Position numbers and translations under genes: made by a program. From positions 8,124-72,123 of the forward strand of contig JBGTCK010000017.1 in the NCBI GenBank assembly GCA_041748855.1: a stretch of 64,000 nucleotides of DNA, written 5' to 3'. Each line of letters opens with the position of its first letter. Position 1 is the first letter of the stretch. This document shows, piece after piece, positions 9,014-54,559 of the stretch. The DNA is from Acidimicrobiia bacterium. Its GTDB lineage: Bacteria; Actinomycetota; Acidimicrobiia; Spongiisociales; ZC4RG35. The notes beneath the pieces were generated by a model that saw only the letters and a list, made by a program, of their open reading frames with translations, had not been told where the DNA came from and did not search any database.

Positions 9014-9511
9014 CTAGTCCTCGATGACATCGAGACCCTGGGCGCGGAGGCGGGCAATGCCATCGAGCATTCCTTGTAGAGCCTCAGAACTGTGGCCCTC
9101 CCAGGTCTCGACCTCGTCGACGACCCGCAAGGGATGGCGGGTTCGATACGACTGGGTGACGTTGCCGGGGAACCTCTTGTTGGTGACGTTGGGGTCGTCC
9201 TCGAAGGGGCCCGTGGGCTCGACAATGTATACGTAACCCCGACCGCTGCTTCCGGAGAGCGAGTTGGCCAGTTCCGCCCCCCAGACGGCGGGTTCGAGCT
9301 GTGCCGCAAAGTACACGTGGTTCGAGACCCGACCCTCTTGATAGTTCGACGGATGGCCGGGAACCAAGAGTTCACCCACATCGAAGGCGATGCTGGTGCC
9401 GTGGTAGAAGGGGCCGGTGATGGGATCACATCGCTCGTACGTAACTGGGAAGTACTCGGCGTCGCCCGGTTCCTTGCCGGCTTCGTGAGTCTTCATTGGA
9501 TCCACTTCCAT
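9014..9511 (-). CDS. arr: NAD(+)--rifampin ADP-ribosyltransferase Arr
   Basis: GPFYHGT...HVYFAAQLEPAVWGAELA...GRGYVYIVEPTGPFEDDPNVTNKRFPGNVTQSYRTRHPLRVV...DVIED matches the conserved Arr core almost motif-for-motif; about 160 aa as expected. Confidence 0.88.
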   Translation of the reverse strand: MEVDPMKTHEAGKEPGDAEYFPVTYERCDPITGPFYHGTSIAFDVGELLVPGHPSNYQEGRVSNHVYFAAQLEPAVWGAELANSLSGSSGRGYVYIVEPTGPFEDDPNVTNKRFPGNVTQSYRTRHPLRVVDEVETWEGHSSEALQGMLDGIARLRAQGLDVIED

Positions 9512-9534
9512 AAGCGGAGGAATATACTCCGTTT

Positions 9535-10122
9535 ATGGTTGATGAGAAAGTGGATCCGGACCCGCCGCTGCGCTCCGATGCTCGCCGCAACCGGCAACGG
9601 CTTGTCAACGCAGCAACCGAACTGGTTCTCGAGGTGGGCGGCGAACCGGGACGCGACGCTGTGGCCCGACGTGCCGGTGTCGGGATAGCCACGTTGTATC
9701 GCCACTTCCCCGATCAGCAAACCCTTCTGCGGGCCGTCGCGATCGACGTCCTCGATCGGACGATCGCCGCCGGTGAAGCTGCACTCGCCGACTCCGAGGA
9801 CTCTGCCAGCGCCTTACGTCGCTACCTCCACGCAGCGATCGACATCGGGCTCGGTGCCGTCAGCATCGTGCATCCCCTACTCGACAACGTCGACTGGCCT
9901 GAGCAGCGGACCGCAGCACAGAATCTGCTCGAGAGACTTGTCGACGCCGCGCAGCGCGACGAAACGCTCGCAAGCGACATCACTGCCACCGAAATTGCAT
10001 TCGCCACAATCCGGTTCTGCCGACCGCTCGCAATTGGCCTCGACTCCGCCCAAGAACGAGCAATCTCCCATCGACAGCTCGACATCTATATCAATGGTCT
10101 GACCCAAAACCAGGATCGATGA
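9535..10122 (+). CDS. TetR family transcriptional regulator
   Basis: N-terminal HTH RRNRQRLVNAATELVLEVGGEPGRDAVARRAGVGIATLYRHFPDQQTLL; divergent from arr. Confidence 0.8.
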   Translation: MVDEKVDPDPPLRSDARRNRQRLVNAATELVLEVGGEPGRDAVARRAGVGIATLYRHFPDQQTLLRAVAIDVLDRTIAAGEAALADSEDSASALRRYLHAAIDIGLGAVSIVHPLLDNVDWPEQRTAAQNLLERLVDAAQRDETLASDITATEIAFATIRFCRPLAIGLDSAQERAISHRQLDIYINGLTQNQDR

Positions 10123-10311
10123 GGACGTATGCGACCGACCCGTAACTTGAAAGCCGGAATCCCCCCTCTTGCTCGCAACTCAGCCGTCATCACCGCCGAC
10201 GACCTGGCTCGCATTTTTTTCGCGTTCTTCCTGACGGGTGAACCCTGGCGCATAGTCTTTCCGCAAGGACAAGAGGCAGGGGGAGGACAACCTAAAGAAA
10301 GGGAAGGGCCC

Positions 10312-10785
10312 ATGAGAAGGCTCACTGTCATCCTTACCGCACTAGCGCTGTTCCTGGCCTTGCCCGCCTCTGCGGCTACGGCTCAAGACGAGCGATTCGT
10401 CGTAACCGTCTATGTGACCGAAGCCCAGACAGGCGTGACCGCGGACGGATCTCTAATCGCTCGAGGAGCTTTCGAAGTCGCCGCCGAAGGTGCGGTACTC
10501 GAAGTTGGGGTCGAGAGGTCCGTCTACCAAGTCGCTGAGACTACTGCCCGCGGCACAAGGGTCTACCGTGACGCCGCCACCGGCAACGTCACCAAGACGC
10601 TCATCAAGGCAACACTGGTCGAAGCGGACGAGGCCAACGGTGTCTTCGTCTATGAGACCAAAGAGACGATCATCTCGAACTCAGAGGGGCTCGCCGGGCA
10701 CGGTGTCGGAACTGCCGTCGTCACCGCCCAACCCGACGGAAGCTTCACCTTGGAGTCCTGGACCGACTTCATACTGAACTACTGA
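10312..10785 (+). CDS. secreted hypothetical protein
   Basis: Start at MRRLTVILTALALFLALPASAATAQDE (signal peptide, AxA cleavage); about 157 aa. Confidence 0.5.
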   Translation: MRRLTVILTALALFLALPASAATAQDERFVVTVYVTEAQTGVTADGSLIARGAFEVAAEGAVLEVGVERSVYQVAETTARGTRVYRDAATGNVTKTLIKATLVEADEANGVFVYETKETIISNSEGLAGHGVGTAVVTAQPDGSFTLESWTDFILNY

Positions 10786-10997
10786 GGTCGGCTAGCACCG
10801 CCAACGATGCGGCTCGCTGCGCCGCGGGAGGATCACCGATGAGTACCACTTGAGGTCTCTCCGTGCAAGTGTGGACGATCACCGACCTCTAAACCTTCGC
10901 TCCGCGGGTAAGACTCGACCCTACGCGTTATCCGCTGTTTAGTTCATGGACGTCATTGGGGTCGACGGGGCTCTCGCCGCTAAAGGGATCTCTTCTC

Positions 10998-11309
10998 TCA
11001 GGGGAGTTTTGAAGCAAGTACATCGGCAGGAAGTATCTCAGGATCTTCCGCCAATAAATCTGCGTTGGCTTTCAATGCTTTGACGATCTCGCCGTCGGCA
11101 TGGGCTTGACGTGCTTCCTCTGTAGCAAAGGCATCGAAGACCCAGAAGGTGTCCGGGCTTGTCGTCGCTGCGAACCAGACTTCCGTGCCGGCTTCGGCAT
11201 TGGCCAGCTCTACTGCGCCGGTCATTAGATCGCGCAATTCGGACTCCTTACCTTCCCGCGCCTTGATCCTCGCTACGAAGGCGTATGGAAGACTCTCGTG
11301 GTGGGTCAT
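10998..11309 (-). CDS. antibiotic-biosynthesis-monooxygenase (ABM) domain protein
   Basis: About 100 aa; ferredoxin-like ABM pattern (AFVARIKAREGKESEL...FWVFDAFATEEARQAH). Confidence 0.55.
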   Translation of the reverse strand: MTHHESLPYAFVARIKAREGKESELRDLMTGAVELANAEAGTEVWFAATTSPDTFWVFDAFATEEARQAHADGEIVKALKANADLLAEDPEILPADVLASKLP

Positions 11310-11673
11310 TTTCTCCTTCTCTGCTTCCGGCCATACGACACTACACCCAGAAGCAGTGAGGGGTGCCTTGAAACGACCTTCACCTCAAACAGCAACAAAT
11401 AGCGCACATCGACAGATCCCGTGGGGGTTCACGCAAAACTTAGGCGTCCAACAACGCATGTCGGCGTGCGTGGTTGGCGCCCGACTGGAATATCACGTTC
11501 CCGTTCGTGCGGCTCATTTCTGGGGTGACGAACTCTGCGAAGCCTTCTCGATGAACAGGGCCGAAGGCCGGCGGACAATCCACTCCGACCGGGTAACTGG
11601 TATTACATACGATGCACTCGAGTGCAACCCGAGGCAATCCAAGAACCTGTGTAGTTGAGCTCTCCCGTTCCTA

Positions 11674-13203
11674 TTACTCACCGAAGAGGGCGGCCCGACC
11701 GTCCGGACTCTGGAACATCTTTCGGCCTGAGTGCCCAATATTCGGGACAAGCGTTAGTGTGTGGCTCGCATAGACATCACTGCCGTAAAGCTCACCCAGA
11801 TACTGGTGGTACAGCAGGCCGCGCTCCAGCCGGGTCACACCTTGTGCGTCGGCCGCGCAGGATGAGTCGAACGATGAGTTTCTATCGGTATCCTGCTCTC
11901 CAAGAAGGTACGTCACCCGACGATTCCGGTACCGATCCTTAATTTGATCGGCTCCTATCTCACGAAGAAAGTCGGGCAGGTCCGTCAGACCGTATTTCCA
12001 CTCATCGACATTCGGGCACTCCTCGAAGTCATCGGTGGTCAGAGAGCGGAACTCCATTCCATCCCAACGGCGATCGTCGAGATACACGTAAGAGGAAGGA
12101 TTGGCGACCACGAAACGATCCAGGTCGCTCAGGGTGGTAGCGGCGTAGCGGTTGGTGAACTGTCCTCCGGCACTGTGCCCGACGAGGAGAGTGTCGTCGA
12201 GAGCCGGGAGGCTTTGCCTGGCAAGTGCCACAATCTGGTCGATCACTTCGAAAGAGGAAATGACCCAGGGACGTCCATCTGGCTCGTCCAACGACAGCGC
12301 CCCGGTTTTCCAGCCGTTCTCCGACCAGTAGATCACATTGTCGGCGTTGCCCTCAAGGTCCTTCTCGGTGATGAACAGGGGTGCCACTACAAGGAGTCCG
12401 TCCGATGAATTCGCAAGGCTTGCCGCCTCGAGCACGTACGAGGCGTATTCGCATGCGTTCCGCTTGTTGCCGTGGATGACAATCAAAAGCCGCGTCACGG
12501 CCGGCCCCGTCGAAAGTGAGCCGTTGCCGCAGTACGGCAACGTTAGTGAAGAGCTCTCAACAGTGATGGTGAGTGTTCTAAGACCGGGAACGGCCGACGA
12601 CGTCGCTTCAGGCACGTTCGATGACGAGGATGCCATTCGCGCGTTAGTCATTGGAGCGTCTGGACAGGACTTGAGCGGGTCGCAGCCATTGGTGATTCCT
12701 GACTCTGCCAGCCGAGCAGTCTCCGACGCGAATGTGTACTCGCCGAGATCATCGAAACCGGCCGTACCGACCTCCGGGCCAAGGGCACGCACCAGGAGGG
12801 CCGCCTCCTCCTCGCGCGTCAGGGGTCGGTCAGAACAGAACGGATCGTTGGTTGTCGGATCACAGCCCTCGATCAGTCCTGAATTGGCCAACCAGACGAT
12901 GTCGGACTCGCGCACGGAATCGGTGGCATCTCGAAAGCCGACGTCCTTGGCGACAATTGGCAGGTCTGGAAGCGAATTGCTCAGGAAGGAGGCTGTTCGT
13001 CCACGGGAGAGCGCTTCGTCGTGACAGAACCGATCGTTTGCCCGAGGGTCACATCTCCTCGTCCATCCCTCAGAAGTAAGCCACCCGATATCGGCCTGAT
13101 GAAAATTGTCGTCCGCAACATCGGTGAACGATTCAGTGGAGAACATGACCGCGAGCATCAGGAGGACGACCAACAGACCTTTGACCAGGAAGACGACCAC
13201 CAA
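11674..13203 (-). CDS. secreted SLH-domain (3x) alpha/beta hydrolase (lipase/esterase)
   Basis: N-terminal TM/signal; three repeats of the form ADIGWL..G...C.P...F.....L.R..A (SLH-like); C-terminal GHSAGG nucleophile elbow. Confidence 0.65.
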   Translation of the reverse strand: MVVVFLVKGLLVVLLMLAVMFSTESFTDVADDNFHQADIGWLTSEGWTRRCDPRANDRFCHDEALSRGRTASFLSNSLPDLPIVAKDVGFRDATDSVRESDIVWLANSGLIEGCDPTTNDPFCSDRPLTREEEAALLVRALGPEVGTAGFDDLGEYTFASETARLAESGITNGCDPLKSCPDAPMTNARMASSSSNVPEATSSAVPGLRTLTITVESSSLTLPYCGNGSLSTGPAVTRLLIVIHGNKRNACEYASYVLEAASLANSSDGLLVVAPLFITEKDLEGNADNVIYWSENGWKTGALSLDEPDGRPWVISSFEVIDQIVALARQSLPALDDTLLVGHSAGGQFTNRYAATTLSDLDRFVVANPSSYVYLDDRRWDGMEFRSLTTDDFEECPNVDEWKYGLTDLPDFLREIGADQIKDRYRNRRVTYLLGEQDTDRNSSFDSSCAADAQGVTRLERGLLYHQYLGELYGSDVYASHTLTLVPNIGHSGRKMFQSPDGRAALFGE

Positions 13204-13250
13204 AGATCTTCGACACGAGAGTCTCCGACCTTGAGGAACTCAGTAAGTAC

Positions 13251-14306
13251 TCAGGGCCCTACAGCGAGGTTGGCCAGATCTACTTCGGCGAGCACGGCGT
13301 CGGCTTCATCAGGGTCGCACTCCCTGGGCTGGTAGTCGACTTTCTTGTTGTCGGTGACAATGCAGGTCACAGTAAGGTCCACCAAGCCATCCCGGGTGAA
13401 GTCCGTTCGCACGACCAGTCCATAGCCGGTGTCGTCGGTAAACAACGATCCACGCGTGGTGAAGACGAAGTTGCCTAGGGAGTAGAGCACTGGCATCGAG
13501 TCGACCATGGCGGCCATCTGGAATACATGCGGTCCGTGGCCGATGACGAGGTCGTAGCCGACGTCGGCGAACTTCTGCGCATCGCTCAGCTGCTGGGCGG
13601 TCGGGTCAGACTGGTAGTTCTCGCCCCAGTGAACGTAGCCCACCACCACGTCGGCGCCGCTTGCCTTCGCCAGCTCATATCCTCGGGCGATTGATCCGAT
13701 AGAGAAAGGGACCGTTCCGGCCTGTTGGGGCGAAGCAGTTACTGTTGCCCCGTAGTTCTTGCCGAGTCCAACCACTCCGATGGTGATGCCGTCCGCCCGT
13801 ATCAAGAGCGGCCGCTCGGCGTGTCCCTCATCCTGGCCGGCCCCGAAGGTGACCAAGCCGAATGCCTCGGCGTGTTGATTTGTATCGGCGAGTCCATTCG
13901 GGCCCTGGTCCAGGGCGTGGTTATTGGCCAGCCCTAGGACATCTACACCCGCCTCGGCTAGAGCCGGAACCATCAGCGGGTCGCTGGCGTAGGAGAACCG
14001 CTTCAAAGGAAGTAAGGGGTCCACGGTTGTGGTGATGGCCGTCTCAGCGTTGACTATGACCACGTCGGCGTCCAGCAGCATCGCCACGCCCTCCAGGGGC
14101 CAGTCGTACCCTCGCTCTTCAAGAACAGGAAGCCCGTGATCGCCAAGCATTGTGTCACCCGCCCAAACGATCGATATGCGATCGGTGATGGCCGGAACGA
14201 CGTCGAGTGAGACGGGCTCTTCACCCCCCGGCCCAAACGGCCACAGGACGGAGAGTGACGCGATCACTCCTGCCAGCAGTAAGAGCAGCAAACCTGGCTT
14301 TTTCAT
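13251..14306 (-). CDS. CapA/PgsA-family metallophosphoesterase
   Basis: Signal peptide MKKPGLLLLLLAG; WAGDTMLGDHG and GNHALD-type metallophosphatase motifs; 4-bp overlap with the upstream gene. Confidence 0.7.
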   Translation of the reverse strand: MKKPGLLLLLLAGVIASLSVLWPFGPGGEEPVSLDVVPAITDRISIVWAGDTMLGDHGLPVLEERGYDWPLEGVAMLLDADVVIVNAETAITTTVDPLLPLKRFSYASDPLMVPALAEAGVDVLGLANNHALDQGPNGLADTNQHAEAFGLVTFGAGQDEGHAERPLLIRADGITIGVVGLGKNYGATVTASPQQAGTVPFSIGSIARGYELAKASGADVVVGYVHWGENYQSDPTAQQLSDAQKFADVGYDLVIGHGPHVFQMAAMVDSMPVLYSLGNFVFTTRGSLFTDDTGYGLVVRTDFTRDGLVDLTVTCIVTDNKKVDYQPRECDPDEADAVLAEVDLANLAVGP

Positions 14307-15139
14307 GATCCGCTACTGACAGCCGTTACCTCAGGGAGAGGCGGTTGGCCAGAACCCGAACAACCCAGCCCCTGGAGAAATTCCATCGTTCGGCCGCCGA
14401 ACCCCCCGACCGCCATGGCACTGGAAAAGGAGTGGCCCGTCTTGGGCATGACCTCGAATCGGGCTCCGGCACGGACGCCACGATGGTCGGCGAGGGCCAG
14501 GAGTCTCTGGTACCAGTTCAGGGCGCGGGATAGGCGGTTCTCGCCTTGTTCGGCGTCTAATCGGGAATCTGACCTGAGCTGTCTGCCTCTAGTGGTGTCT
14601 CGCTCACCGACAGTGATGAGAACATCGACACCGAGGAACCCCTTCACGTCCACCGCCATCCCATCCGAAGCAGTGCTAGGAGCAGTGCCGTGTGGAAATG
14701 GACGATCAGAATCTAATTGGGTGTACCAACCTGCCGCCCCCACGACGAGACGCCTGACACGCTGTGGGTACAAGAGTGCGTATCGATGGGCGAACTGGGC
14801 CCCACCAGAGAAGCCGACGAGGTCGAAGACGGGAAGCGGCATCCCAAGCTCTTTGGCGAGCGCCTCTAGCGCTTCATCCAAAACTCGAGCTGCGCCGAGT
14901 GGACGACCGTCACTGATGAGACGTTGGTAACCACGATGACTACCGCCGCCGAACTCGGGCACTAGAAGCGGTGCGCCACCGTACTCGGCGTAGGGCCGGA
15001 AGGTCGACAGGTAGTTAGGAGCGTTGCCTGAAGAACCGGGTATGAGCACGATCGGCGGAGCCGTCCATTCCTTTGGCACGAAGTGGAGAGCGTATGGAAT
15101 CGTCAACTGCTCAGTGAATGTTGACATCGTTGCGGTCAC
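14303..15139 (-). CDS. alpha/beta hydrolase
   Basis: VLIPGSSGN...DLVGFSGGAQFAHRYALLYPQRV (GxSxG) pattern; 4-bp overlaps on both sides. Confidence 0.6.
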   Translation of the reverse strand: MTATMSTFTEQLTIPYALHFVPKEWTAPPIVLIPGSSGNAPNYLSTFRPYAEYGGAPLLVPEFGGGSHRGYQRLISDGRPLGAARVLDEALEALAKELGMPLPVFDLVGFSGGAQFAHRYALLYPQRVRRLVVGAAGWYTQLDSDRPFPHGTAPSTASDGMAVDVKGFLGVDVLITVGERDTTRGRQLRSDSRLDAEQGENRLSRALNWYQRLLALADHRGVRAGARFEVMPKTGHSFSSAMAVGGFGGRTMEFLQGLGCSGSGQPPLPEVTAVSSGS

Positions 15140-16821
15140 CCAAGCCAGCTTTGGACCCGATCGTCGCTTCTCGGCAAGACGTCGACGAACCGTCCTTCAT
15201 GCAAGTACCGGACCTCGTCCGCCATACTCGCCTCTTCAGGGTCGTGCGTGACCATCAGCACAGTTCCGTGGTGATGGCCGAGAACCTTTCGAAAGACCTC
15301 CTTCGTCACCCCGTCAAGACCTGAAGTCGGCTCGTCAAGAAGGAGAAGCGGTGGGTTGCCCATCAGCGCTCTTCCAAGAGCGATCCGCTGGCGTTCGCCC
15401 ACCGAGATATTGCGGCCACCTTCGTACAGCCAAGTCTGGAGGCCGTCGGGTAACCGGGCAAGAAGGGTGTCGAGGTGACAGGTCCGGATGATCCTCTCGA
15501 TTTCCTCCGGAGTTGCTGAAGGATGGCGGTAGGTGAGATTACGAGCCACGGTGCCTCTCATGAGCGGGAGGTCGGGCGAAACCATTCCCACCCGACGGAA
15601 CCGGGAGATCAGTGTATGACTGGATAAAGACTGACCATCGATGAGGACCTCACCGGAGTCCGGATTTTCGAGGCCACTGATCACTGACAGAAGCGTTGAC
15701 TTACCCGCCCCTGTTGCGCCCATGATGGCCACCATGCGCCCTCCGGGCACAGTAAGGGAGACATCGCTCAGGGCGCCGCCCACGCTGACATTACGCAACT
15801 CGATGTCCCCACGAGAGACCGACAGCCGGCTGAGGTCCGGCTCGTCCAGAGGGCGACTCGAACTTCGCATAAAATCGAGAATCTTCCCTCGGGAAACGGA
15901 GGCTCTTTGCCAGTAGTCGTAGCTCAATCCCAAACGACGCACCGGCCCGGCGAGATGACGCGCGGCGAGTATCGCAGTTGCCACCACCCCCACTGTGGTC
16001 CTTCCAGCGATTACCTCTAGCGAGCCAACCCACACGACCGCGACAATCGCCAGCCAACCAGACGCGGTGGCGGCAGCGAGCATCCACGCACGGACTGTCG
16101 AGGTGCGAAACAGCGACCTCGTCAAGGAATCGTTCTGACGTGACAGGCGGTGGTATTCACCTTTGCTGCGGCCAAACACCTGTACCACTGCTAAGGAATG
16201 GACCTGTTCATCGACGTTGCTCGTTAGCAACGACCGCTTACGTCGAACCCACTTTGTGACCCGACGCAAACGGGGCCCGAGCTCAACCGTGATCGCAGCG
16301 CCCGCGACGAGAGTAGCAGCCATCACAAGGGCAATTCTTAGGTTGAGAGTGGCGATGGTGGCCAGACCGGCCGTTAGGACGATCAGTGATGCCAATCCTC
16401 GGCCGATCCCCCGGCTGACCCATGTCCTGAGCATCGACAGGTCGCCGGTGAATCGGAGAACCAGTCCGCCCCGCGCTCGACCCTGAATCTGACGGGGGGA
16501 CATTCCCTGGAGATGCTCGTACATGGCCATGCGCAATCGGCGAATCTGCTCATATCCCATGTTCTCTGACACCCAGAACTCTCCGGACCGACTGAGAACG
16601 TTCAGGAGCACCGCGCCCATCAGAGCCACGATCGACCATCGAATGAGAATCGGATCGGGTTCTGCGCTTCCGAGAGCGTCAATAAGCGTTCGCAGCAGCA
16701 GGAGGAAGGCCACGAGGGACACAGCTTGAAATACGGCAAGCACCACTACGCCGCTCAAGAAAAGACGGGGCAGCCGGAGAGCCGGGACCTCTCGGGGCTT
16801 TGAGAAGGGTAAGATCGTCAC
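15136..16821 (-). CDS. ABC transporter, fused permease/ATP-binding (exporter type)
   Basis: Six-TM N-terminal domain followed by Walker A GATGAGKSTL, the ABC signature and the Walker B motif LLLLDEPTSGLD. Confidence 0.85.
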   Translation of the reverse strand: MTILPFSKPREVPALRLPRLFLSGVVVLAVFQAVSLVAFLLLLRTLIDALGSAEPDPILIRWSIVALMGAVLLNVLSRSGEFWVSENMGYEQIRRLRMAMYEHLQGMSPRQIQGRARGGLVLRFTGDLSMLRTWVSRGIGRGLASLIVLTAGLATIATLNLRIALVMAATLVAGAAITVELGPRLRRVTKWVRRKRSLLTSNVDEQVHSLAVVQVFGRSKGEYHRLSRQNDSLTRSLFRTSTVRAWMLAAATASGWLAIVAVVWVGSLEVIAGRTTVGVVATAILAARHLAGPVRRLGLSYDYWQRASVSRGKILDFMRSSSRPLDEPDLSRLSVSRGDIELRNVSVGGALSDVSLTVPGGRMVAIMGATGAGKSTLLSVISGLENPDSGEVLIDGQSLSSHTLISRFRRVGMVSPDLPLMRGTVARNLTYRHPSATPEEIERIIRTCHLDTLLARLPDGLQTWLYEGGRNISVGERQRIALGRALMGNPPLLLLDEPTSGLDGVTKEVFRKVLGHHHGTVLMVTHDPEEASMADEVRYLHEGRFVDVLPRSDDRVQSWLG

Positions 16822-18140
16822 GCTTCACCGGGTGCGCCGAGAGCGGCCCCGATTCCCAGCACACCGCCTCGTGGACGCAGATCAATGACCACGTCCGAAT
16901 CCTCGACCGTGACCGCATCTTCGAAAGGCTCGTGAATCGGAGAAGCCGCACCGAGTAGGGCTGATGCCGTAACCGGATCCGATAGTTCTGCGAGCGTGAG
17001 AATCGGCACCCCGCATTCGGCTCGTGTCTCGGCCATGGCCAGGGGCGATCTCGTCAGTCTTCCCGCCACCGCCACCACGGGCAGGCCCAGTTCTTTCAGC
17101 CGGGCAACCCCCGCGATCGCACCCATGGCGTCGGCGGCAGCGAACACCACTCCATCTATCCTCTCCCGGAAGACTTCGCTGTCGAGAAGTTGCGCCGTTT
17201 CGTATTGGAGCAAGCCGTCAGCCACCTCGATGAGGACCGAGCCACAGCCGCGATGGGTCAGGTGGTCGATCAGATTCACCATCGTCTGTTCCACCACATG
17301 CATGTCAACACCGAAGGTCGACGCCAGGCCGGCGTCAGTGAAGTCGAGCATTGCTTGAGCACCGGCATCGAGCATTACCCAATAGTCGCCACCGGAACCG
17401 GTGCCTGTGACTTTGGTCACACCCGGTCTGTGACCACCATCACGCAGCCCTAGAACGAGCTGCTTGATGGTTGTGGTCTTGCCCGAGTTCATGGATGTTC
17501 CGATCACGGCAAGGGCCGGTAACCGGGTCTCGGCGGAAGGGACGGAGCGCAGTCCGAAGTCGGACAAGTTCAGGGGGGTAAACCTCTCGTTGCCGATTAG
17601 GCCGAGTGGCGTGATCTCGGTGGCGCGCCGCACATCGTCACTCATGGTACGAACCGACGAGGCCACACCACCTGACGCCACGAGTTGTGTCGGCTGAAGA
17701 TCCAGAGGTACATATGATTCAAATTGGTCAGGCGCGTATCGGTTGGCATAAACGACCGCGATCTCATCCCCTGGATACATCCAGGCGCGACGACCGTTCG
17801 TCAGTTCGAGGCGGCGGTGGTTTCCTAAGCGATCGACCCTGGCCAGGACGAGATCGCCTGGACGAGGCCTCACTGGCCCAGCTATCAGCGACACCATCGC
17901 TTTGACCGGAACATGACGAGTCGTAAAGGCTCTCTTAGTGCGTTCACGCCGATTGATATCGAGCGACGAGACATGGACTGTCCTTCGACGCCACAGGCGT
18001 GCAGATCGTTTACTTGGTACGGGAACTTTAGAAACGAGATTCGGCTCAGATGCCTCAGAAATCGGACTAGGATCTTCCGACCCTGTGCCCACCACGGTTT
18101 CGTCCTCCGACGATATATTCACTCGAGCCTCCCAAAGCAT
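16818..18140 (-). CDS. P-loop protein, DUF1611-like (Rossmann-like N-terminal domain + GxxxxGKTT C-terminal domain)
   Basis: GTSMNSGKTTTIKQL Walker A; architecture resembles DUF1611; first gene of the 4-gene overlapping operon. Confidence 0.45.
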   Translation of the reverse strand: MLWEARVNISSEDETVVGTGSEDPSPISEASEPNLVSKVPVPSKRSARLWRRRTVHVSSLDINRRERTKRAFTTRHVPVKAMVSLIAGPVRPRPGDLVLARVDRLGNHRRLELTNGRRAWMYPGDEIAVVYANRYAPDQFESYVPLDLQPTQLVASGGVASSVRTMSDDVRRATEITPLGLIGNERFTPLNLSDFGLRSVPSAETRLPALAVIGTSMNSGKTTTIKQLVLGLRDGGHRPGVTKVTGTGSGGDYWVMLDAGAQAMLDFTDAGLASTFGVDMHVVEQTMVNLIDHLTHRGCGSVLIEVADGLLQYETAQLLDSEVFRERIDGVVFAAADAMGAIAGVARLKELGLPVVAVAGRLTRSPLAMAETRAECGVPILTLAELSDPVTASALLGAASPIHEPFEDAVTVEDSDVVIDLRPRGGVLGIGAALGAPGEA

Positions 18141-18510
18141 TAATACGCTTGATTAGCTCAGTGCTATTGGCGTGATCTCCTTGATAATACTGCCTTTGAG
18201 TTACTACCTCCCGGCCTGCCCGAAAAAACCGCCGCTGGCCCCGACAGTCGACCTCGACATTCGAACCGGAATCGTCGTCCTCGGCAATGTCCCGTACGGT
18301 GTGGTACGACTACACAAATGGCTCGACACGAGTGCGGCGCTCTCCCCGACGAGGGTGGCATTGCAGGATCTCGGACGGGTAAATGGCGAACTCGAGCGAC
18401 TGCTAGTCAACTCCCAAGCCTCCGCTGCAGCCGCTGCAAGCGCTGGCGTTTGAATGGCCGGTTGTTTGGGTACGCTTGCTCGTTTCGATAGGACGATTCG
18501 GCTGGGAGCT

Positions 18511-19401
18511 ATGAACAAGACAGCAACCCCTCGGGTGCGAATGTCAGCCAAGAGAGGGGCCTCGCCCCGCTTTCTTGGTGTGGCGACGGTCTTTTTCCTC
18601 TTCTTCACGTTGGTGCCGACCCTTGGAGCGGTAGGGACCTCCGCCGGCGGTGATTTTGAGATCATCATTCCAGTGAGCACGGTCGTTAGGGGCCCGGAGG
18701 GCTCCGAGATAGTTCTAATGCAGTTATCCACCCCAACTGATCTCGTGGGAGCTACTTGTGAGATCACCGCCATGTCGGAGAATCAGAGCTCCGTGCATCC
18801 CGACAATGATCTCATGGTTGCCGGCGTGCTGGTCCCCGACGTCGAGGGCGAACCAGGAGGCAAGATCGACGCCAACGACGTCGTCGTCCTCGGCTCAAAC
18901 ATCGTTATTTCACTTCTAATGGGACCCGATGGAGTCTTCTCAGCTGGTCTCACGGTTGGATTCAAGTGCACATCCGTCGCTGCCGCCTCGACGACAACCA
19001 CCACAGGACAGACCAGCACTACCAACGCCACCGATGAAACCAGCACCACGGCGAGTTCATCGACGACTGTCCTGGCGGCCGTTGTGACCACGACTACGCT
19101 CGAGACCGAGGTGAAGGGGATTCAGATCCTTCCGTTAACGGGCCGAGACAACAGTAAGTACGTAGTTCTCGCACTGGCGGCCGCCGCAGCCGGCTTGCTG
19201 ATGTTACTGGGAGCGCGCTCGTTCAATGCCGTCCCACTCCTCGCAATGACGACGTCGATGAGCTTCATGTGCGCCCGCTGTGAGCGCGGGGCCACTTTCC
19301 GCACGCCACATGGGCTCCTATGCCGCACACACACCCGCGACGCCCTGCAGGCTGACAGCCAACTCTGGTTGCCGAAGCGACTTGATCGAGAATACTTATA
19401 G
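18511..19401 (+). CDS. secreted Thr-rich protein with LPLTG sortase-type motif followed by a hydrophobic segment and basic residues; cell-wall anchoring not established because about 50 aa follow the motif
   Basis: Signal peptide; Thr/Ser-rich stalk (STTTTTGQTSTTNATDETSTT...); ILPLTG then hydrophobic stretch then ARS; an unusual extension of about 50 aa follows the sorting signal. Confidence 0.55.
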   Translation: MNKTATPRVRMSAKRGASPRFLGVATVFFLFFTLVPTLGAVGTSAGGDFEIIIPVSTVVRGPEGSEIVLMQLSTPTDLVGATCEITAMSENQSSVHPDNDLMVAGVLVPDVEGEPGGKIDANDVVVLGSNIVISLLMGPDGVFSAGLTVGFKCTSVAAASTTTTTGQTSTTNATDETSTTASSSTTVLAAVVTTTTLETEVKGIQILPLTGRDNSKYVVLALAAAAAGLLMLLGARSFNAVPLLAMTTSMSFMCARCERGATFRTPHGLLCRTHTRDALQADSQLWLPKRLDREYL

Positions 19402-19786: not shown

Positions 19787-22354
19787 ATGTTCACCGACAT
19801 AGAGGGGTCGACGCGCCTGCTCGGGTTACTCGGCGACGAGTATGGACAGCTGCTGGCGGATCACCATCGGCTGATCGTCGCTGCCGCAGAGAAGGAACAG
19901 GGTGTACTGGTCGACACCCAGGGCGACGCCTGCTTCATCGTGTTTCCGACCGCCTCCCAGGCAGTCGCAGCGGCGGCTGAAATTCAGCAAGCCCTGTCCA
20001 CCCATGCCTGGCCGGGCGGGGTCGAAGTCAGAGTCCGGGTGGGCCTCCACACGGGTTCCCCGATACAGATGGACGATCGGTACGTGGGGATGGACGTCCA
20101 TCGGGCCGCTCGAATCTCCGCCGCCGCTCACGGTGGCCAGGTGGTCGCCTCGGCGTCTACCGTCCAGCTGTCGGAAGAGGGCCCATCGTGGCTCGCCCTG
20201 GGCGACTTCCGGCTCAAGGATCTCATGCGTCCCGAGCGCCTCTACCAGCTGGTGGCGACGGGGCTGGCCGAACACCACCCGCCGCTGCGGGCGGATCGAT
20301 GGGGGACGGAGCTCCCCGAACCTCCCACACGCTTTGTGGGTCGGGCCACGGCGGTCGAGGAGGTCCTCGAGATGCTGTCTGGGGAGACCAGATTGGTCAC
20401 ACTGGTCGGGCCGGGCGGGATCGGCAAGACCAGATTAGCGGTCCACGTGGGTCGGTTGTGGTCCGACCGCTTCACCGATGGCATCCAGTTCGTCCCCCTC
20501 GCCGCCCTGACCGAACCGGAGGTGATGACTGCCATCGTGGAGGCGTTGGGGGTTACCCAGATCGGGTCCGACGATCCCATGGGTTTGGTAGTCCAGCACC
20601 TGCGCCATCGCCGGATGCTTCTGATCCTCGACAACATGGAACATCTCGTGCCCGCAGCGGGCCGTCTGGTAGCGGACCTGATGCGCGGCTGCCCGGATCT
20701 GCGCATCGTCGCCACCTCACGTGCTCCGGTCGGTGTCTCAGGCGAGCAGCTGATGAGGGTGCCTGCCCTTGCCCTGCCCTCTGAGGATGTCGAACTCGCT
20801 GCCGCCGCCGAGTTCGAAGCGGTTGCCCTGTTCGTGGACAGGGCCCGGACGGTCGACCCGGGTTTCAGATTGACCGACGGCAACCTCGATGCGGTGGTGC
20901 AGATCTGCCGTCGGCTGGACGGACTCCCGCTCGCCCTGGAGTTGGCTGCCGCTCGGACGGCCGTGCTGGCACCAGCCGAACTCCTCGATCGTCTACGCCT
21001 GGATCTCCTGACAAGCAGTTCGACTGACCTCGACGAGCGGCAGCGTACGTTGGCTTCGACCATCGAGTGGAGCTACCGGTTGCTCGACCACTCGCTACAG
21101 CGAGTATTCCGCGAGTTCTCGGTGTTCGCCGGTGGCGCCACGCTGGAGGACACAGGAGCTGTGATCGACCCGGGTGGTGCGACCGATACCCTCGAGGCGG
21201 TCTCGAATCTCGTCGCCAGCAGCCTGCTGTGGCGTGACGAAGATGAAGGAGGGACGTCGCGTTTTCGGATGCTCGAGATCATTAGAGAGTTCGCCCAGCG
21301 CGAGCTCGACCGCTCAGGCGACCTCCCGGCAGTCGCAGACCGGCACGCCGCCAGATTCGCCGAGTTCCTCGAGACGGCCGAAGAGAAGGTGGACGGACCC
21401 GAAGCATCGGAGTGGATGGCGAGGATCGACGCCGAGATGTCGAACACACGGGCCGCCCTCCGCTGGACCTTGGAGGACCCTCGCGGCTCCAGGCTCGCTG
21501 GTGTGAGTATGGCGCAGTCCTTAGGTTGGTTCTGGTACATTCGCGGCCATGCCAGCGAAGGGCTCCGGTGGCTGGAGTCGGCTATCCTGGCCGCAAACGA
21601 TGCGCCCGGACTCCACCGCATCCGAGTCACCTATTACGCCGGCGCCCTGGCTGAAAGGCTGGGACGGTTCCCCGAAGCAGTGCAGCGGTTCCAACAGACT
21701 TTGGTGCTCTGTCGAGAGTTGGGCGACGAGGCGCGCGCAGGGAGAGCGCTCAACTCGCTGGGAGGCATGGCCGTCGAAATGGGAGAGCACGAAGCGGCGA
21801 CGGGATACCTCGCCGAAGCGGAGGAGATCCTACTCTCTCACGACGACAAGTACGGGCTCGGGGCAAACCGGACAAACCAGTGCGACGTGGCCCTCGCTCG
21901 CGGGGAACTCGACCGGGCCCGACAACTGGGCGAGTCGGCGCTCAGCCTGTTCTCAACGTCGGACGACGCATTCGGGGAGGGCGTGGCTTTGCGACACCTC
22001 ACCAAGGTTGCCTACGCCGCTGGGGACCTGGAAGAGGTCCGAAGGCTGCTAAAAGGCGCCCTCACCAAGGGACTCGAGATCGGGAACCTTGCCGACTCAG
22101 CTCGATGCCTGGAACGGCTGGGCGGTGTGGAGATCGCCTTAGGACGCAGCGCCAAGGGGATCCGACTGGGGGCGGCCGCTCAGCGGCTCCGTAGCGAGGT
22201 CGGCGACCATCTGACACCAGACCGGCTGGCCAGCTTCGAACGAAGCTGGTCGCAGGCTCGACTGGTTCTGGGCGAAGAGGAATATCAGACTGCGTGGGAC
22301 CAGGGTTCCAACATGACCTTCGATCAGGCCGTTGCTTACGGCACTGAGAACTGA
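19787..22354 (+). CDS. class III adenylate/guanylate cyclase domain + STAND/AAA NTPase + TPR repeats
   Basis: N-terminal FTDIEGSTRLL cyclase motif; Walker A LVGPGGIGKTRLA; C-terminal TPR-like repeats; 855 aa. Confidence 0.8.
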   Translation: MFTDIEGSTRLLGLLGDEYGQLLADHHRLIVAAAEKEQGVLVDTQGDACFIVFPTASQAVAAAAEIQQALSTHAWPGGVEVRVRVGLHTGSPIQMDDRYVGMDVHRAARISAAAHGGQVVASASTVQLSEEGPSWLALGDFRLKDLMRPERLYQLVATGLAEHHPPLRADRWGTELPEPPTRFVGRATAVEEVLEMLSGETRLVTLVGPGGIGKTRLAVHVGRLWSDRFTDGIQFVPLAALTEPEVMTAIVEALGVTQIGSDDPMGLVVQHLRHRRMLLILDNMEHLVPAAGRLVADLMRGCPDLRIVATSRAPVGVSGEQLMRVPALALPSEDVELAAAAEFEAVALFVDRARTVDPGFRLTDGNLDAVVQICRRLDGLPLALELAAARTAVLAPAELLDRLRLDLLTSSSTDLDERQRTLASTIEWSYRLLDHSLQRVFREFSVFAGGATLEDTGAVIDPGGATDTLEAVSNLVASSLLWRDEDEGGTSRFRMLEIIREFAQRELDRSGDLPAVADRHAARFAEFLETAEEKVDGPEASEWMARIDAEMSNTRAALRWTLEDPRGSRLAGVSMAQSLGWFWYIRGHASEGLRWLESAILAANDAPGLHRIRVTYYAGALAERLGRFPEAVQRFQQTLVLCRELGDEARAGRALNSLGGMAVEMGEHEAATGYLAEAEEILLSHDDKYGLGANRTNQCDVALARGELDRARQLGESALSLFSTSDDAFGEGVALRHLTKVAYAAGDLEEVRRLLKGALTKGLEIGNLADSARCLERLGGVEIALGRSAKGIRLGAAAQRLRSEVGDHLTPDRLASFERSWSQARLVLGEEEYQTAWDQGSNMTFDQAVAYGTEN

Positions 22355-53347: not shown

Positions 53348-54559
53348 ATGACGCGTATCGTGGTGATTCTCCCGTCCAGCACCTATCGCGCTGGTGAGTT
53401 CGTCAAGGCCAGTGCCGAGCTTGGTGTCGAGCTGATCGTGGCGTCCGAAGGGGAGCCACCGATCGAAATGGGCGATCGCTACCTGCAGATCGACTGTTCG
53501 GACGTGGACGCCGCGGCTGAGCGGATCATCGCTCTGGGTGACATTGCCCGGATCGATGGCATCGTGGCCGCTGACGACATGGGGGTTGTCGTCGCCGCTA
53601 TCGCCGGCCAGAAACTCGGCCTCCCTTCTAACGACCCCGACGCTGCCCGCGCGACCCGGGACAAGGCACTCATGCGCCAGCGGCTGGAATCTGGCGAGGT
53701 CCCCCAACCCCGATGGGCAATTGTGGACGGATCGGACGATGCCGGCACCGTCGCCGAATCGATCGGGTTTCCGCTGGTGATCAAACCATTGGCGCTCTCA
53801 GCGGGCCAGGGTGTGATCCGGGTCGATCGGCCCGAAGACCTTGCCGCCTCCGCTGACAGAGTGAAGGCGATAACCCGTTCGACCGGGTTGGCGGACGAGG
53901 TCCTGCTTCTCGAAAGCTTCATAGACGGAAGCGAGGTCGCAGTCGAAGGTCTGGTGGCAGCCGGGAACCTCTTGCCTCTGGCGATTTTCGACAAGCCGGT
54001 CGAAACGGCCGGCCATGGGTTCGAGGAGACGATCCTGATCACGCCTTCCCGTCATGAGCCCTCGGTACAAACCGAGATCTTGCGGGTCGCCGCACAGGCA
54101 GTCCGATCGCTCGGCCTTTCCCAGGGTCCGGTACACATCGAACTCATGGTCTCGGGTGAGAAGGTAAGCGTCATCGAGGTTGCGGGACGCTCCATCGGCG
54201 GGCTCTGCTCCCGAAGTCTCAGCTTCGGGTTGATGGACACCTCGCTCGAGTCGTTGATCCTCCGCAACGCAATCGGACGCGACAAGCCGGAACTGCACCG
54301 CTCAGTAGACGCAAGCGGTGTGCTCATGTTGCCGATTCCGGCCGCGGGGACCCTGGTCGGGTTCGAGGGCCTCGACGAGGTTCGGAGCCAGGAAGCGATC
54401 ACCGGCATCGAGATCACTGCCCGAGCCGGGGACAGAGTGGCTCCGCCGCCGGAGGGCGGACGCTATATCGGGTTTGTGTTCGCTGAGGCAAAAACGCCGG
54501 ACACTGTCGAATTGGTGCTGAAAGAGGCGATGCGCACAATCGAGGTGATGATCGAGTGA
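53348..54559 (+). CDS. ATP-grasp domain protein
   Basis: ATP-grasp fold pattern (ARATRDKALMRQRL...GFPLVIKPLALSAGQGV...). Confidence 0.7.
   Translation: MTRIVVILPSSTYRAGEFVKASAELGVELIVASEGEPPIEMGDRYLQIDCSDVDAAAERIIALGDIARIDGIVAADDMGVVVAAIAGQKLGLPSNDPDAARATRDKALMRQRLESGEVPQPRWAIVDGSDDAGTVAESIGFPLVIKPLALSAGQGVIRVDRPEDLAASADRVKAITRSTGLADEVLLLESFIDGSEVAVEGLVAAGNLLPLAIFDKPVETAGHGFEETILITPSRHEPSVQTEILRVAAQAVRSLGLSQGPVHIELMVSGEKVSVIEVAGRSIGGLCSRSLSFGLMDTSLESLILRNAIGRDKPELHRSVDASGVLMLPIPAAGTLVGFEGLDEVRSQEAITGIEITARAGDRVAPPPEGGRYIGFVFAEAKTPDTVELVLKEAMRTIEVMIE

Follow-up and report, generated by a model that had tools for sequence, protein, structure and literature searches.

The stretch of DNA analyzed here (the window) comprises 64,000 nucleotides of an Acidimicrobiia bacterium (GenBank assembly GCA_041748855.1, contig JBGTCK010000017.1, positions 8,124 to 72,123 of the forward strand) and contains a run of five closely spaced genes, designated A to E, next to a divergently oriented gene, F (Table 1). 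All six open reading frames (ORFs), first picked out in an earlier sequence-only reading of this DNA, were confirmed at their coordinates. A encodes a P-loop protein, B an ABC exporter, C and E hydrolases related to poly(aspartic acid) hydrolase-1 (PahZ1), and D a CapA-like protein; these five genes represent one operon, the Acidimicrobiia-type form of a cassette that is widespread but has no name.

Table 1. Features of the A–E operon and its flanks (positions are those of the window; aa, amino acids).
Feature	Position	Strand	Remarks
Gene A	16818-18140	(-)	Longest ORF 440 aa; first gene of the operon; marker of the cassette
A, N-terminal beta-rich domain	17526-17978	(-)	About residues 55-205
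A, SIMIBI-class P-loop NTPase domain	16941-17525	(-)	About residues 206-400; predicted from fold and motifs
Gene B	15136-16821	(-)	ORF 561 aa
Gene C	14303-15139	(-)	ORF 278 aa
Gene D	13251-14306	(-)	ORF 351 aa
Gene E	11674-13203	(-)	ORF; begins 47 bp after D
E, three SLH-like repeats	~12604-13128	(-)	SLH in homologs
E, catalytic domain	~11677-12531	(-)	GHSAGG; Asp in GEQDTD; QGVTRLERG (Arg); His in GHS
Terminator-like hairpin	11444-11457	(-)	~220 bp past the E stop codon; first such site after E; pattern scan
Non-coding region between A and F	18141-18453	(-)	313-bp gap upstream of A; presumed promoter region
Gene F	18454-19401	(+)	ORF divergent from A

When the longest ORFs are taken, the three junctions between A and D are 4-bp overlaps (GTGA at A/B and B/C, ATGA at C/D), as the sequence-only reading had described, and the co-translated operon that it proposed from them is supported. 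No terminator-like site was detected by pattern scan in the gap between D and E, base composition is uniform across the operon region, and the hairpin downstream of E is a tentative candidate for the operon end. The region upstream of A contained no match to the σ70 consensus and no Rfam element at E ≤ 0.1; no riboswitch, leader RNA, or promoter was thus assigned there. Two of the start codons may need revision. For A, a GTG at 18122, preceded by a GGGAGG Shine-Dalgarno sequence, gives a protein of 434 aa, the same length as cluster member P0121, and is more probably the start. The NCBI model of A (P0001, 359 aa) begins inside a conserved region and was probably mis-called, because it drops about 25 conserved residues, including the motif R..RAK.AFTTRRVP. 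The NCBI product of C has 274 aa, and C may start at an ATG four codons into the ORF, in which case the B/C overlap would be lost.

Conservation of gene order was assessed in a sample of 82 loci carrying A, found in Actinomycetota, Chloroflexota, Alpha-, Beta-, and Gammaproteobacteria, Cyanobacteria, Acidobacteriota, Desulfobacterota, and Bdellovibrionota. A B-type exporter gene directly follows A in 67 of these loci, representing at least seven phyla, and most of the others have a divergent or type-I-secretion ABC gene at this position; a C-type hydrolase follows in 46 loci, and about 63 of the 82 encode at least one PahZ1-family protein. Two metagenome contigs with unrelated flanks also show the order A-ABC-hydrolase-PGA_cap. 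Because the arrangement recurs in dozens of unrelated genomes, it is far beyond chance; the sequence-only reading had named the absence of synteny elsewhere as its refutation, and the opposite was found. Its four-gene operon A to D has to be changed, however: CapA-like genes are present in only 32 of the 82 loci (Actinomycetota, Chloroflexota, sphingomonads, and some Rhodobacterales) and are therefore accessory, the core consists of A, B, and a PahZ1-type hydrolase, and the unit in the window has five genes. E belongs to this unit because, in the window and in loci L003, L028, and L056, E-type enzymes occupy either the position after D or the one following it, while E-type genes adjoin the cassette elsewhere in L006 and L057. 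An apparent fusion of D to a PahZ1-type (K-type) hydrolase in L028 was rejected, since the long ORF runs out of frame and is an artefact of the high GC content. The cassette is present in hundreds of bacterial species and was found in 9 of 72,556 plasmid records. More than 2900 homologs of A were retrieved at ~55% identity across phyla; these define a highly conserved family (~50–55% identity across phyla) with 585 clusters at 50% identity and E ≤ 1e-30, and a collection holding one genome per species contained at least 543 confirmed matching stretches.

While both C and E gave only weak generic alpha/beta-hydrolase hits in Pfam, a search of the PDB with C retrieved the PahZ1 structures of Pedobacter sp. 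KP-2 (9o7u, E = 1.1e-15) and Sphingomonas sp. KT-1 (6ve6, E = 6.7e-14), with matches covering residues 15–239 at ~25% identity. C residues Ser111, Asp181, His236, and Arg202 align with S157, D225, H280, and R246 of the KT-1 enzyme, which represent its catalytic triad and an arginine reported to be essential for positioning poly(Asp) (PMC13017698); the nucleophile box reads GFSGG in C and GHSAG in PahZ1. The catalytic domain of E matched 6ve6 with E = 1.7e-6 and is a more distant member of the family than C. Among 81 aligned cassette-linked hydrolases (47 C-type, 28 PahZ1-type, here K-type, and 6 E-type), the arginine and the catalytic histidine are invariant (81/81), and the serine and the aspartate are kept in all K-type and E-type sequences and, each, in 46 of the 47 C-type sequences. 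By these alignments C and E are PahZ1-family serine hydrolases rather than a generic hydrolase and a lipase, and they may hydrolyze beta-linked poly- or oligo(Asp). The KP-2 enzyme prefers the beta bond between L-Asp and D-Asp and is an endo-hydrolase requiring three bound Asp units (PMC4456602). In actinobacterial loci a lipoprotein with 40–46% identity to PahZ1 of KT-1 often follows D, at the position taken by E in the window; C, E, and these lipoproteins share with PahZ1 the fold, the G-x-S-x-G box, the Ser-Asp-His triad, and the equivalent of Arg246. PahZ1 is, however, known only as a periplasmic, stand-alone enzyme that degrades a synthetic polymer, whereas here the family sits in an exporter operon and C lacks a signal peptide.

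The location of these enzymes differs among lineages. The C protein of the window has neither a signal peptide nor a hydrophobic N-terminus, so that C is probably cytoplasmic in this lineage; a heuristic reading of C-type N-termini likewise gave no signal in Actinobacteria, and TAT or Sec signals in sphingomonads and several Gammaproteobacteria. With a median isoelectric point (pI) of 9.9, C-type proteins are strongly basic, as expected for proteins that bind a polyanion. In E, an N-terminal signal or anchor precedes the three SLH-like repeats. The sequence-only reading had described E as an SLH-anchored lipase flanking the operon. SLH domains (PF00395) are recorded in its homologs P0131 (77% identity) and P0132 (45%), and E itself gave no Pfam hit even at E ≤ 10 and one weak match to the SLH region of SbsB (E = 0.15); the flanking lipase is instead a PahZ1-family member of the cassette.

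D matched PGA_cap (PF09587) with 193.8 bits over model positions 2–254 of 255 and has a hydrophobic segment at residues 2–27, so that D is, on sequence grounds, a CapA/PgsA-family protein of calcineurin-like fold with an N-terminal anchor or signal and a predicted extracytoplasmic location. Its nearest solved structures are those of the peptide epimerase MslH (8gq9 and 8gqb, E ~3e-12), a CapA-like, Ca-dependent C-terminal peptide epimerase (PMC10406935). Brevifollis has a PahZ1 homolog that carries a fused CapA-like domain (PMC13017698). Speculatively, the preference of the KP-2 enzyme for a bond between L- and D-Asp would fit a polymer with D-residues introduced by an epimerase of the CapA/MslH type. 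In many diderm loci, genes for outer-membrane channels, including anion-selective types, are found instead of CapA; they flank the cassette and in most cases follow it directly (Porin_O_P in 11 loci, an outer-membrane beta-barrel protein in 9, and Alginate_exp in 4), and in the Nostoc locus L073 an OprB porin adjoins an M36-like peptidase.

These observations bear on a possible role in envelope maintenance, namely the attachment or remodeling of a poly-amino acid linked to the wall or of a peptidoglycan side chain, comparable to the wall-bound poly-Glu/Gln of mycobacteria, with A as an NTPase for exporter assembly or targeting. The CapA family is tied to wall-anchored polyglutamate, E carries SLH-like repeats that may bind the wall, and SIMIBI NTPases, the class to which A is assigned below, are often targeting factors. 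The chance of such a role nevertheless appears slim, as the A-B-C core occurs in diderms without CapA and with outer-membrane channels, pointing to release rather than wall attachment, and no peptidoglycan-enzyme families were detected in the cassette with Pfam and NCBIfam.

B combines an ABC_membrane domain (107 bits) and an ABC_tran domain (105 bits) in one chain and is, by these Pfam matches, a half-transporter with a fused transmembrane domain (TMD) and nucleotide-binding domain (NBD) and a predicted exporter (type IV) fold. It scored below every NCBIfam equivalog cut-off (CydC, 234.5 bits against 329; MsbA, 210 against 602; cyanophycin metabolism-associated ABC, 155 against 880). In loci L052 and L069, a PrtD-type ABC protein and HlyD stand in place of B, and the same probably applies to L059 and L071, which carry an HlyD-type gene. 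Because B has an exporter fold and is replaced by type I secretion in these variant loci, we infer that its direction of transport is export.

The direction of transport matters for the opposite possibility, i.e., that the cassette serves to take up and catabolize acidic polyamides from the environment (e.g., peptides rich in isoaspartyl bonds, or debris of cyanophycin), which would be cut by a surface PahZ1-type enzyme, imported through porins and B, and finally degraded by C. Porin_O_P-type channels are classically uptake channels, and an M28/M20 peptidase is encoded near the cassette in L002. Moreover, poly(Asp) assimilation, described for Sphingomonas KT-1 and Pedobacter KP-2, is the one proven role of PahZ1 (PMC13017698). 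We consider this account improbable, since B has an exporter architecture without a solute-binding protein partner, the variant loci use type I secretion, which is export-only, biosynthetic ligase genes are co-located in some loci, and catabolism offers no obvious role for an NTP-binding protein conserved at ~50% identity.

Those ligase genes occur in three of the variant loci. Locus L052 has a tightly packed order of A, the PrtD-type ABC gene, HlyD, a CphA-like (cyanophycin-synthetase-like) gene, and a PahZ1-like gene, with a second CphA-like gene upstream. In L069, A, the ABC gene, and HlyD are followed by a gene (12945-16013) for a 1022-aa protein that fuses CphA N and ATP-grasp domains to CapA, and then by two PahZ1-like genes. 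Locus L050 contains split G and M domains along with an ABC exporter, two C-type hydrolases, a CapA/MslH-like gene, and an aspartate-aminotransferase-like gene. The CphA-like proteins of these three loci reached 244–452 bits, compared to CphA cut-offs of 850–877, and consist of N and G (plus partial M) domains that are cut short, split, or fused to CapA. The CphA-CapA fusion was found in about 30 sequence clusters, mainly from Paracoccus. Such CphA N plus ATP-grasp-CapA proteins (e.g., P0255, P0257, P0259, P0261-P0263) have ~1020 aa, with some Paracoccus versions of 1600–1790 aa that suggest duplicated ligase modules, and are named "cyanophycin synthetase" or "CapA family protein" by NCBI. Another variant links hydrolase and exporter directly: in the Desulfobacterales locus L072, a single 850-aa ORF (9161-11713) fuses B (TMD-NBD) in frame to a C-terminal PahZ1-type hydrolase in which the Ser, Asp, His, and Arg residues are intact, an arrangement that fits processing coupled to export.

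Other variants were observed as well. In a Rhizobiales/Rhodobacterales group (L053, L055, L058, L064, L066, L076, and L084), A is followed by a divergent ABC gene and by a gene for an S8 subtilase, which replaces the PahZ1-type hydrolase; in L053 and L084, a gene for an extracytoplasmic function (ECF) sigma factor or an anti-sigma-like protein is located nearby. On the Sulfitobacter conjugative plasmid NZ_CP040754.1 (L083, 7428-11726), a gene with an aspartyl/asparaginyl beta-hydroxylase domain, a further neighbor related to aspartate, and a hypothetical gene precede A and the ABC gene. Genes for histidine-kinase/response-regulator pairs, including sigma-54 activators, are common neighbors of the cassette.

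The fusion in L072 resembles protease-exporter fusions, and a half-size exporter such as B usually moves small or amphipathic molecules and peptides. It is therefore conceivable, although in our view unlikely, that the cassette exports and matures a small product, e.g., a short non-ribosomal (iso)peptide, a metal chelator, or a signal, with A as ligase or loader and the hydrolases providing maturation or immunity, as in peptidase-containing bacteriocin exporters; general porins would be enough for a small solute, and the two-component regulators adjoining many loci are also compatible with this view. However, the region upstream of A yielded no conserved small ORF, PahZ1 is an endo-hydrolase that has to bind three Asp units (PMC4456602), and the CapA-like proteins, the cyanophycin-synthetase-like partners, and the AlgE-type channel point to polymers. 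A system for peptides made on ribosomes and modified after translation (RiPPs), suggested by the similarity of D to CapA/MslH, was also considered; when the ORFs of 20–110 aa within 1.5 kb upstream of A were clustered for all loci, nothing proved to be conserved beyond close relatives. Anti-phage defence was likewise rejected, as PADLOC gave generic ABC-ATPase hits only.

The family of A is covered by no curated NCBIfam model. Pfam and NCBIfam gave only sub-threshold matches to MobB, DUF1611, and AAA_26, all of them around the P-loop. The DUF1611 assignment made in the sequence-only reading turned out to be nominal: the match to PF07755 has 13.5 bits against a cut-off of 25, and covers only 41 residues around the P-loop, so that A is not a canonical member. 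MobB is the best sequence match, but not a significant one (PF03205, 18 bits with a cut-off of 26.6; TIGR00176, 21.2 bits with a cut-off of 76.2). Searches of PDB sequences with A alone and with a 64-sequence profile retrieved no solved relative and no DUF1611 structure.

An AlphaFold model of A has a core with a predicted local distance difference test (pLDDT) score of ~97, and a Foldseek search of the PDB with its P-loop domain retrieved SRP54/Ffh, dethiobiotin synthetase (TMt ~0.6), ATPase-type HypB, and CTP synthetase (E 3e-7 to 4e-5, probability 1.0). According to this model, the C-terminal half of A has a SIMIBI-class P-loop NTPase fold. Its motifs are, in order, GTSMNSGKTTT, K243-VTGTGSGGDYW, LDFTD, and E305-VADG, and within the first of these, the Walker A motif, G214, N218, G220, K221, T222, and T223 are invariant; in our own reading, this order resembles that of MobB and dethiobiotin synthetase. 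A shares with MobB, dethiobiotin synthetase, and DUF1611 the fold of this domain, the P-loop, a Lys after strand 2, and a Walker-B-like strand with E-x-x-x-G; it differs from them in that all family matches are below threshold and in its N-terminal beta domain, which lacks a known structural relative. This N-terminal domain contains the invariant residues G88, R91, P92, E112, G116, R117, R134-Y135-A136, D138, and E141 and was modelled separately with a pLDDT of 96, and Foldseek found no fold neighbor for it in the PDB (best E = 0.42, TM ≤ 0.31). A canonical DUF1611, ATP-grasp, or Mur-ligase identity of A, as had been raised in the sequence-only reading, is unsupported by Pfam, NCBIfam, the PDB sequence search, the family profile, and the fold search. 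Six homologs of A with 540–680 aa (P0112, P0117, P0370, P0018, P0376, and P0377) carry N-terminal extensions of 150–290 residues, which are conserved among them.

The interpretation that we prefer, with a probability of roughly 45%, is that the cassette synthesizes, exports, and trims an anionic aspartate-based polyamide with beta-aspartyl (isopeptide-type) bonds on its way from the cytoplasm to the cell surface. This interpretation is suggested by the partners that recur together, i.e., an exporter or type I secretion system, an external channel or CapA-like protein, hydrolases of the PahZ1 family, which is specific for beta-linked poly(Asp), and, occasionally, ligases of the kind that forms poly-Asp. 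Operons for exopolymers commonly encode a depolymerase for their own product. A, as a cytoplasmic NTP-dependent protein of the MobB/dethiobiotin-synthetase branch, would either make the amide bonds, activating carboxylates as dethiobiotin and CTP synthetases do, or load the pump. B would export the product, and C, a PahZ1-type endo-hydrolase located at the cytoplasmic face of B or fused to it in some lineages and periplasmic in others, could cut or release chains. Outside the membrane, D, possibly an MslH-like epimerase, and E, with its putative wall anchor, would modify and trim the polymer, and in diderms an outer-membrane channel, often anion-selective, would let it out. The synteny, family assignments, and conserved residues described above are direct observations, from which we infer the chemistry of the product and the reaction of A. 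The role of A is the weakest step: its branch of the fold holds carboxylate-activating amidoligases (dethiobiotin and CTP synthetases), and A might itself form the bonds, supply CphA2-like polymerases with beta-aspartyl building blocks, or load B.

Several points weigh against a polyamide cassette of this kind. The fold class of A also includes pure targeting or adaptor NTPases (SRP54, HypB, and MobB), and MobB, the closest sequence relative of A, albeit at sub-threshold similarity, is not known as an enzyme. No recognizable polymerase is encoded in the window cassette, and cyanophycin-synthetase-like genes accompany A in only 3 of the 82 loci (L050, L052, and L069). The specificity of C could differ from that of PahZ1 at the low identity between them, and PahZ1 has been assayed solely on synthetic polymer. 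Unlike a polyanion binder, D and E have an acidic pI (4.2–5), as do the PahZ1-like lipoproteins of Actinobacteria, and CapA is absent from most diderm loci. We also know of no report of a natural poly-beta-aspartate, including in the literature that we found. A more specific version, in which the cassette is the machinery for a new extracellular beta-linked poly(aspartate), perhaps with D-residues introduced by the CapA-like protein, with A as a new ATP-dependent polyamide or isopeptide synthetase and the PahZ1-type enzymes as dedicated turnover enzymes, is considered unlikely. The broader proposal of the sequence-only reading, an exported polymer or peptide, remains the best reading of the locus.

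Comparison with known systems indicated relatives, and, as the sequence-only reading had stated, no named pathway matches. The poly-gamma-glutamate systems PgsBCA(E)/CapBCA(E) of Bacillus resemble the cassette in having a membrane-anchored extracytoplasmic CapA/PgsA protein (PF09587), an associated polymer hydrolase, and an anionic polyamide product with amide bonds to side-chain carboxyls, which is presumed for the cassette. No hits to the Mur-ligase-type synthetase PgsB/CapB or to PgsC were found among the six window proteins (A–F; Pfam and NCBIfam) or among the conserved neighbor clusters of the 82 loci, and because it lacks PgsB and PgsC, the cassette is not a member of the Pgs/Cap group; an ABC exporter and A take the place of synthetase and PgsC, and most diderm versions do without CapA. 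Cyanophycin, made by CphA1/CphA2, forms granules inside the cell; the cassette would share with this system a poly-Asp backbone chemistry and has CphA-like genes in or next to the A operon of L050, L052, and L069. These CphA-like proteins, however, sit with secretion genes, and B is not the cyanophycin-associated ABC protein. Because no CphA gene (N, G, and M domains) is present in the window cassette, it is not a member of the cyanophycin systems either. A hydrolase acting on the cargo is also encoded with the exporter in peptidase-containing ABC transporters (PCATs) and in operons with a self-depolymerase (AlgL, BcsZ), to which the fusion in L072 and the AlgE-family channel that follows in some loci can be compared; the hydrolase of the cassette, however, is a serine enzyme of alpha/beta fold placed C-terminally to the NBD and not, as in PCATs, an N-terminal C39 peptidase, and no gene for a ribosomal precursor was found.

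Full-text literature searches for DUF1611, PahZ1, polyaspartate/CapA, cyanophycin/polyaspartate, and CphA3 found no paper describing the cassette, and RefSeq plasmid records label its genes only as "DUF1611 domain-containing protein", "ABC transporter ATP-binding protein", "alpha/beta hydrolase", and "S8 family serine peptidase". A 2026 paper on PahZ1 makes no mention of operons, gene clusters, or a natural substrate. The cassette may be an unnamed relative of poly-amino-acid synthesis and export systems, with a real but unproven chance of being a new biopolymer pathway. It could represent a fourth family of bacterial poly-amino-acid systems, beside those for poly-gamma-glutamate, poly-epsilon-lysine, and cyanophycin. 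Industry produces poly(aspartic acid) as a biodegradable substitute for polyacrylate, and PahZ1 is one of few known degraders and lacks a known natural substrate; the presence of PahZ1-family genes in a conserved exporter operon offers a concrete, testable origin for these enzymes. It also gives a biological context to the A family, several hundred clusters that in RefSeq carry only the DUF1611 label, and flags its beta-rich N-terminal domain, which lacks a structural relative in the PDB. Should the product be a secreted polycarboxylate, it could be relevant to metal and calcium binding, biofilm matrices, and polyaspartate bioproduction.

The only ATP-grasp gene of the window (53348-54559, (+) strand, 403 aa) was considered as the missing synthetase and rejected; it is generic L-amino-acid-ligase-like (BacD/DdaF-like, sub-threshold), lies 35 kb away, and showed no evidence of linkage. 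F encodes a Thr-rich protein in which LPLTG, noted in the sequence-only reading as pointing to cell-surface biology, is present at residues 226–230, followed by a hydrophobic segment (234–257) and by ~58 residues that include a Cys- and Arg-rich sequence. The motif is therefore not part of a C-terminal sortase (LPXTG) signal, and the NCBIfam LPXTG-family hit reached 19 bits against a cut-off of 47; F may be a read-through or have a mis-called end, or may be an unusual membrane protein. Since a homolog of F was found in none of the 82 related loci, its adjacency is uninformative on the operon. Beyond F, an 855-aa ORF (19787-22354, (+) strand) begins, judged by eye, with a cyclase-like motif (adenylate/guanylate; FTDIEGST), followed by a P-loop (GPGGIGKT) and a long, apparently helical-repeat C-terminus; it looks like a large signalling regulator adjoining the operon and is not conserved in the related loci.

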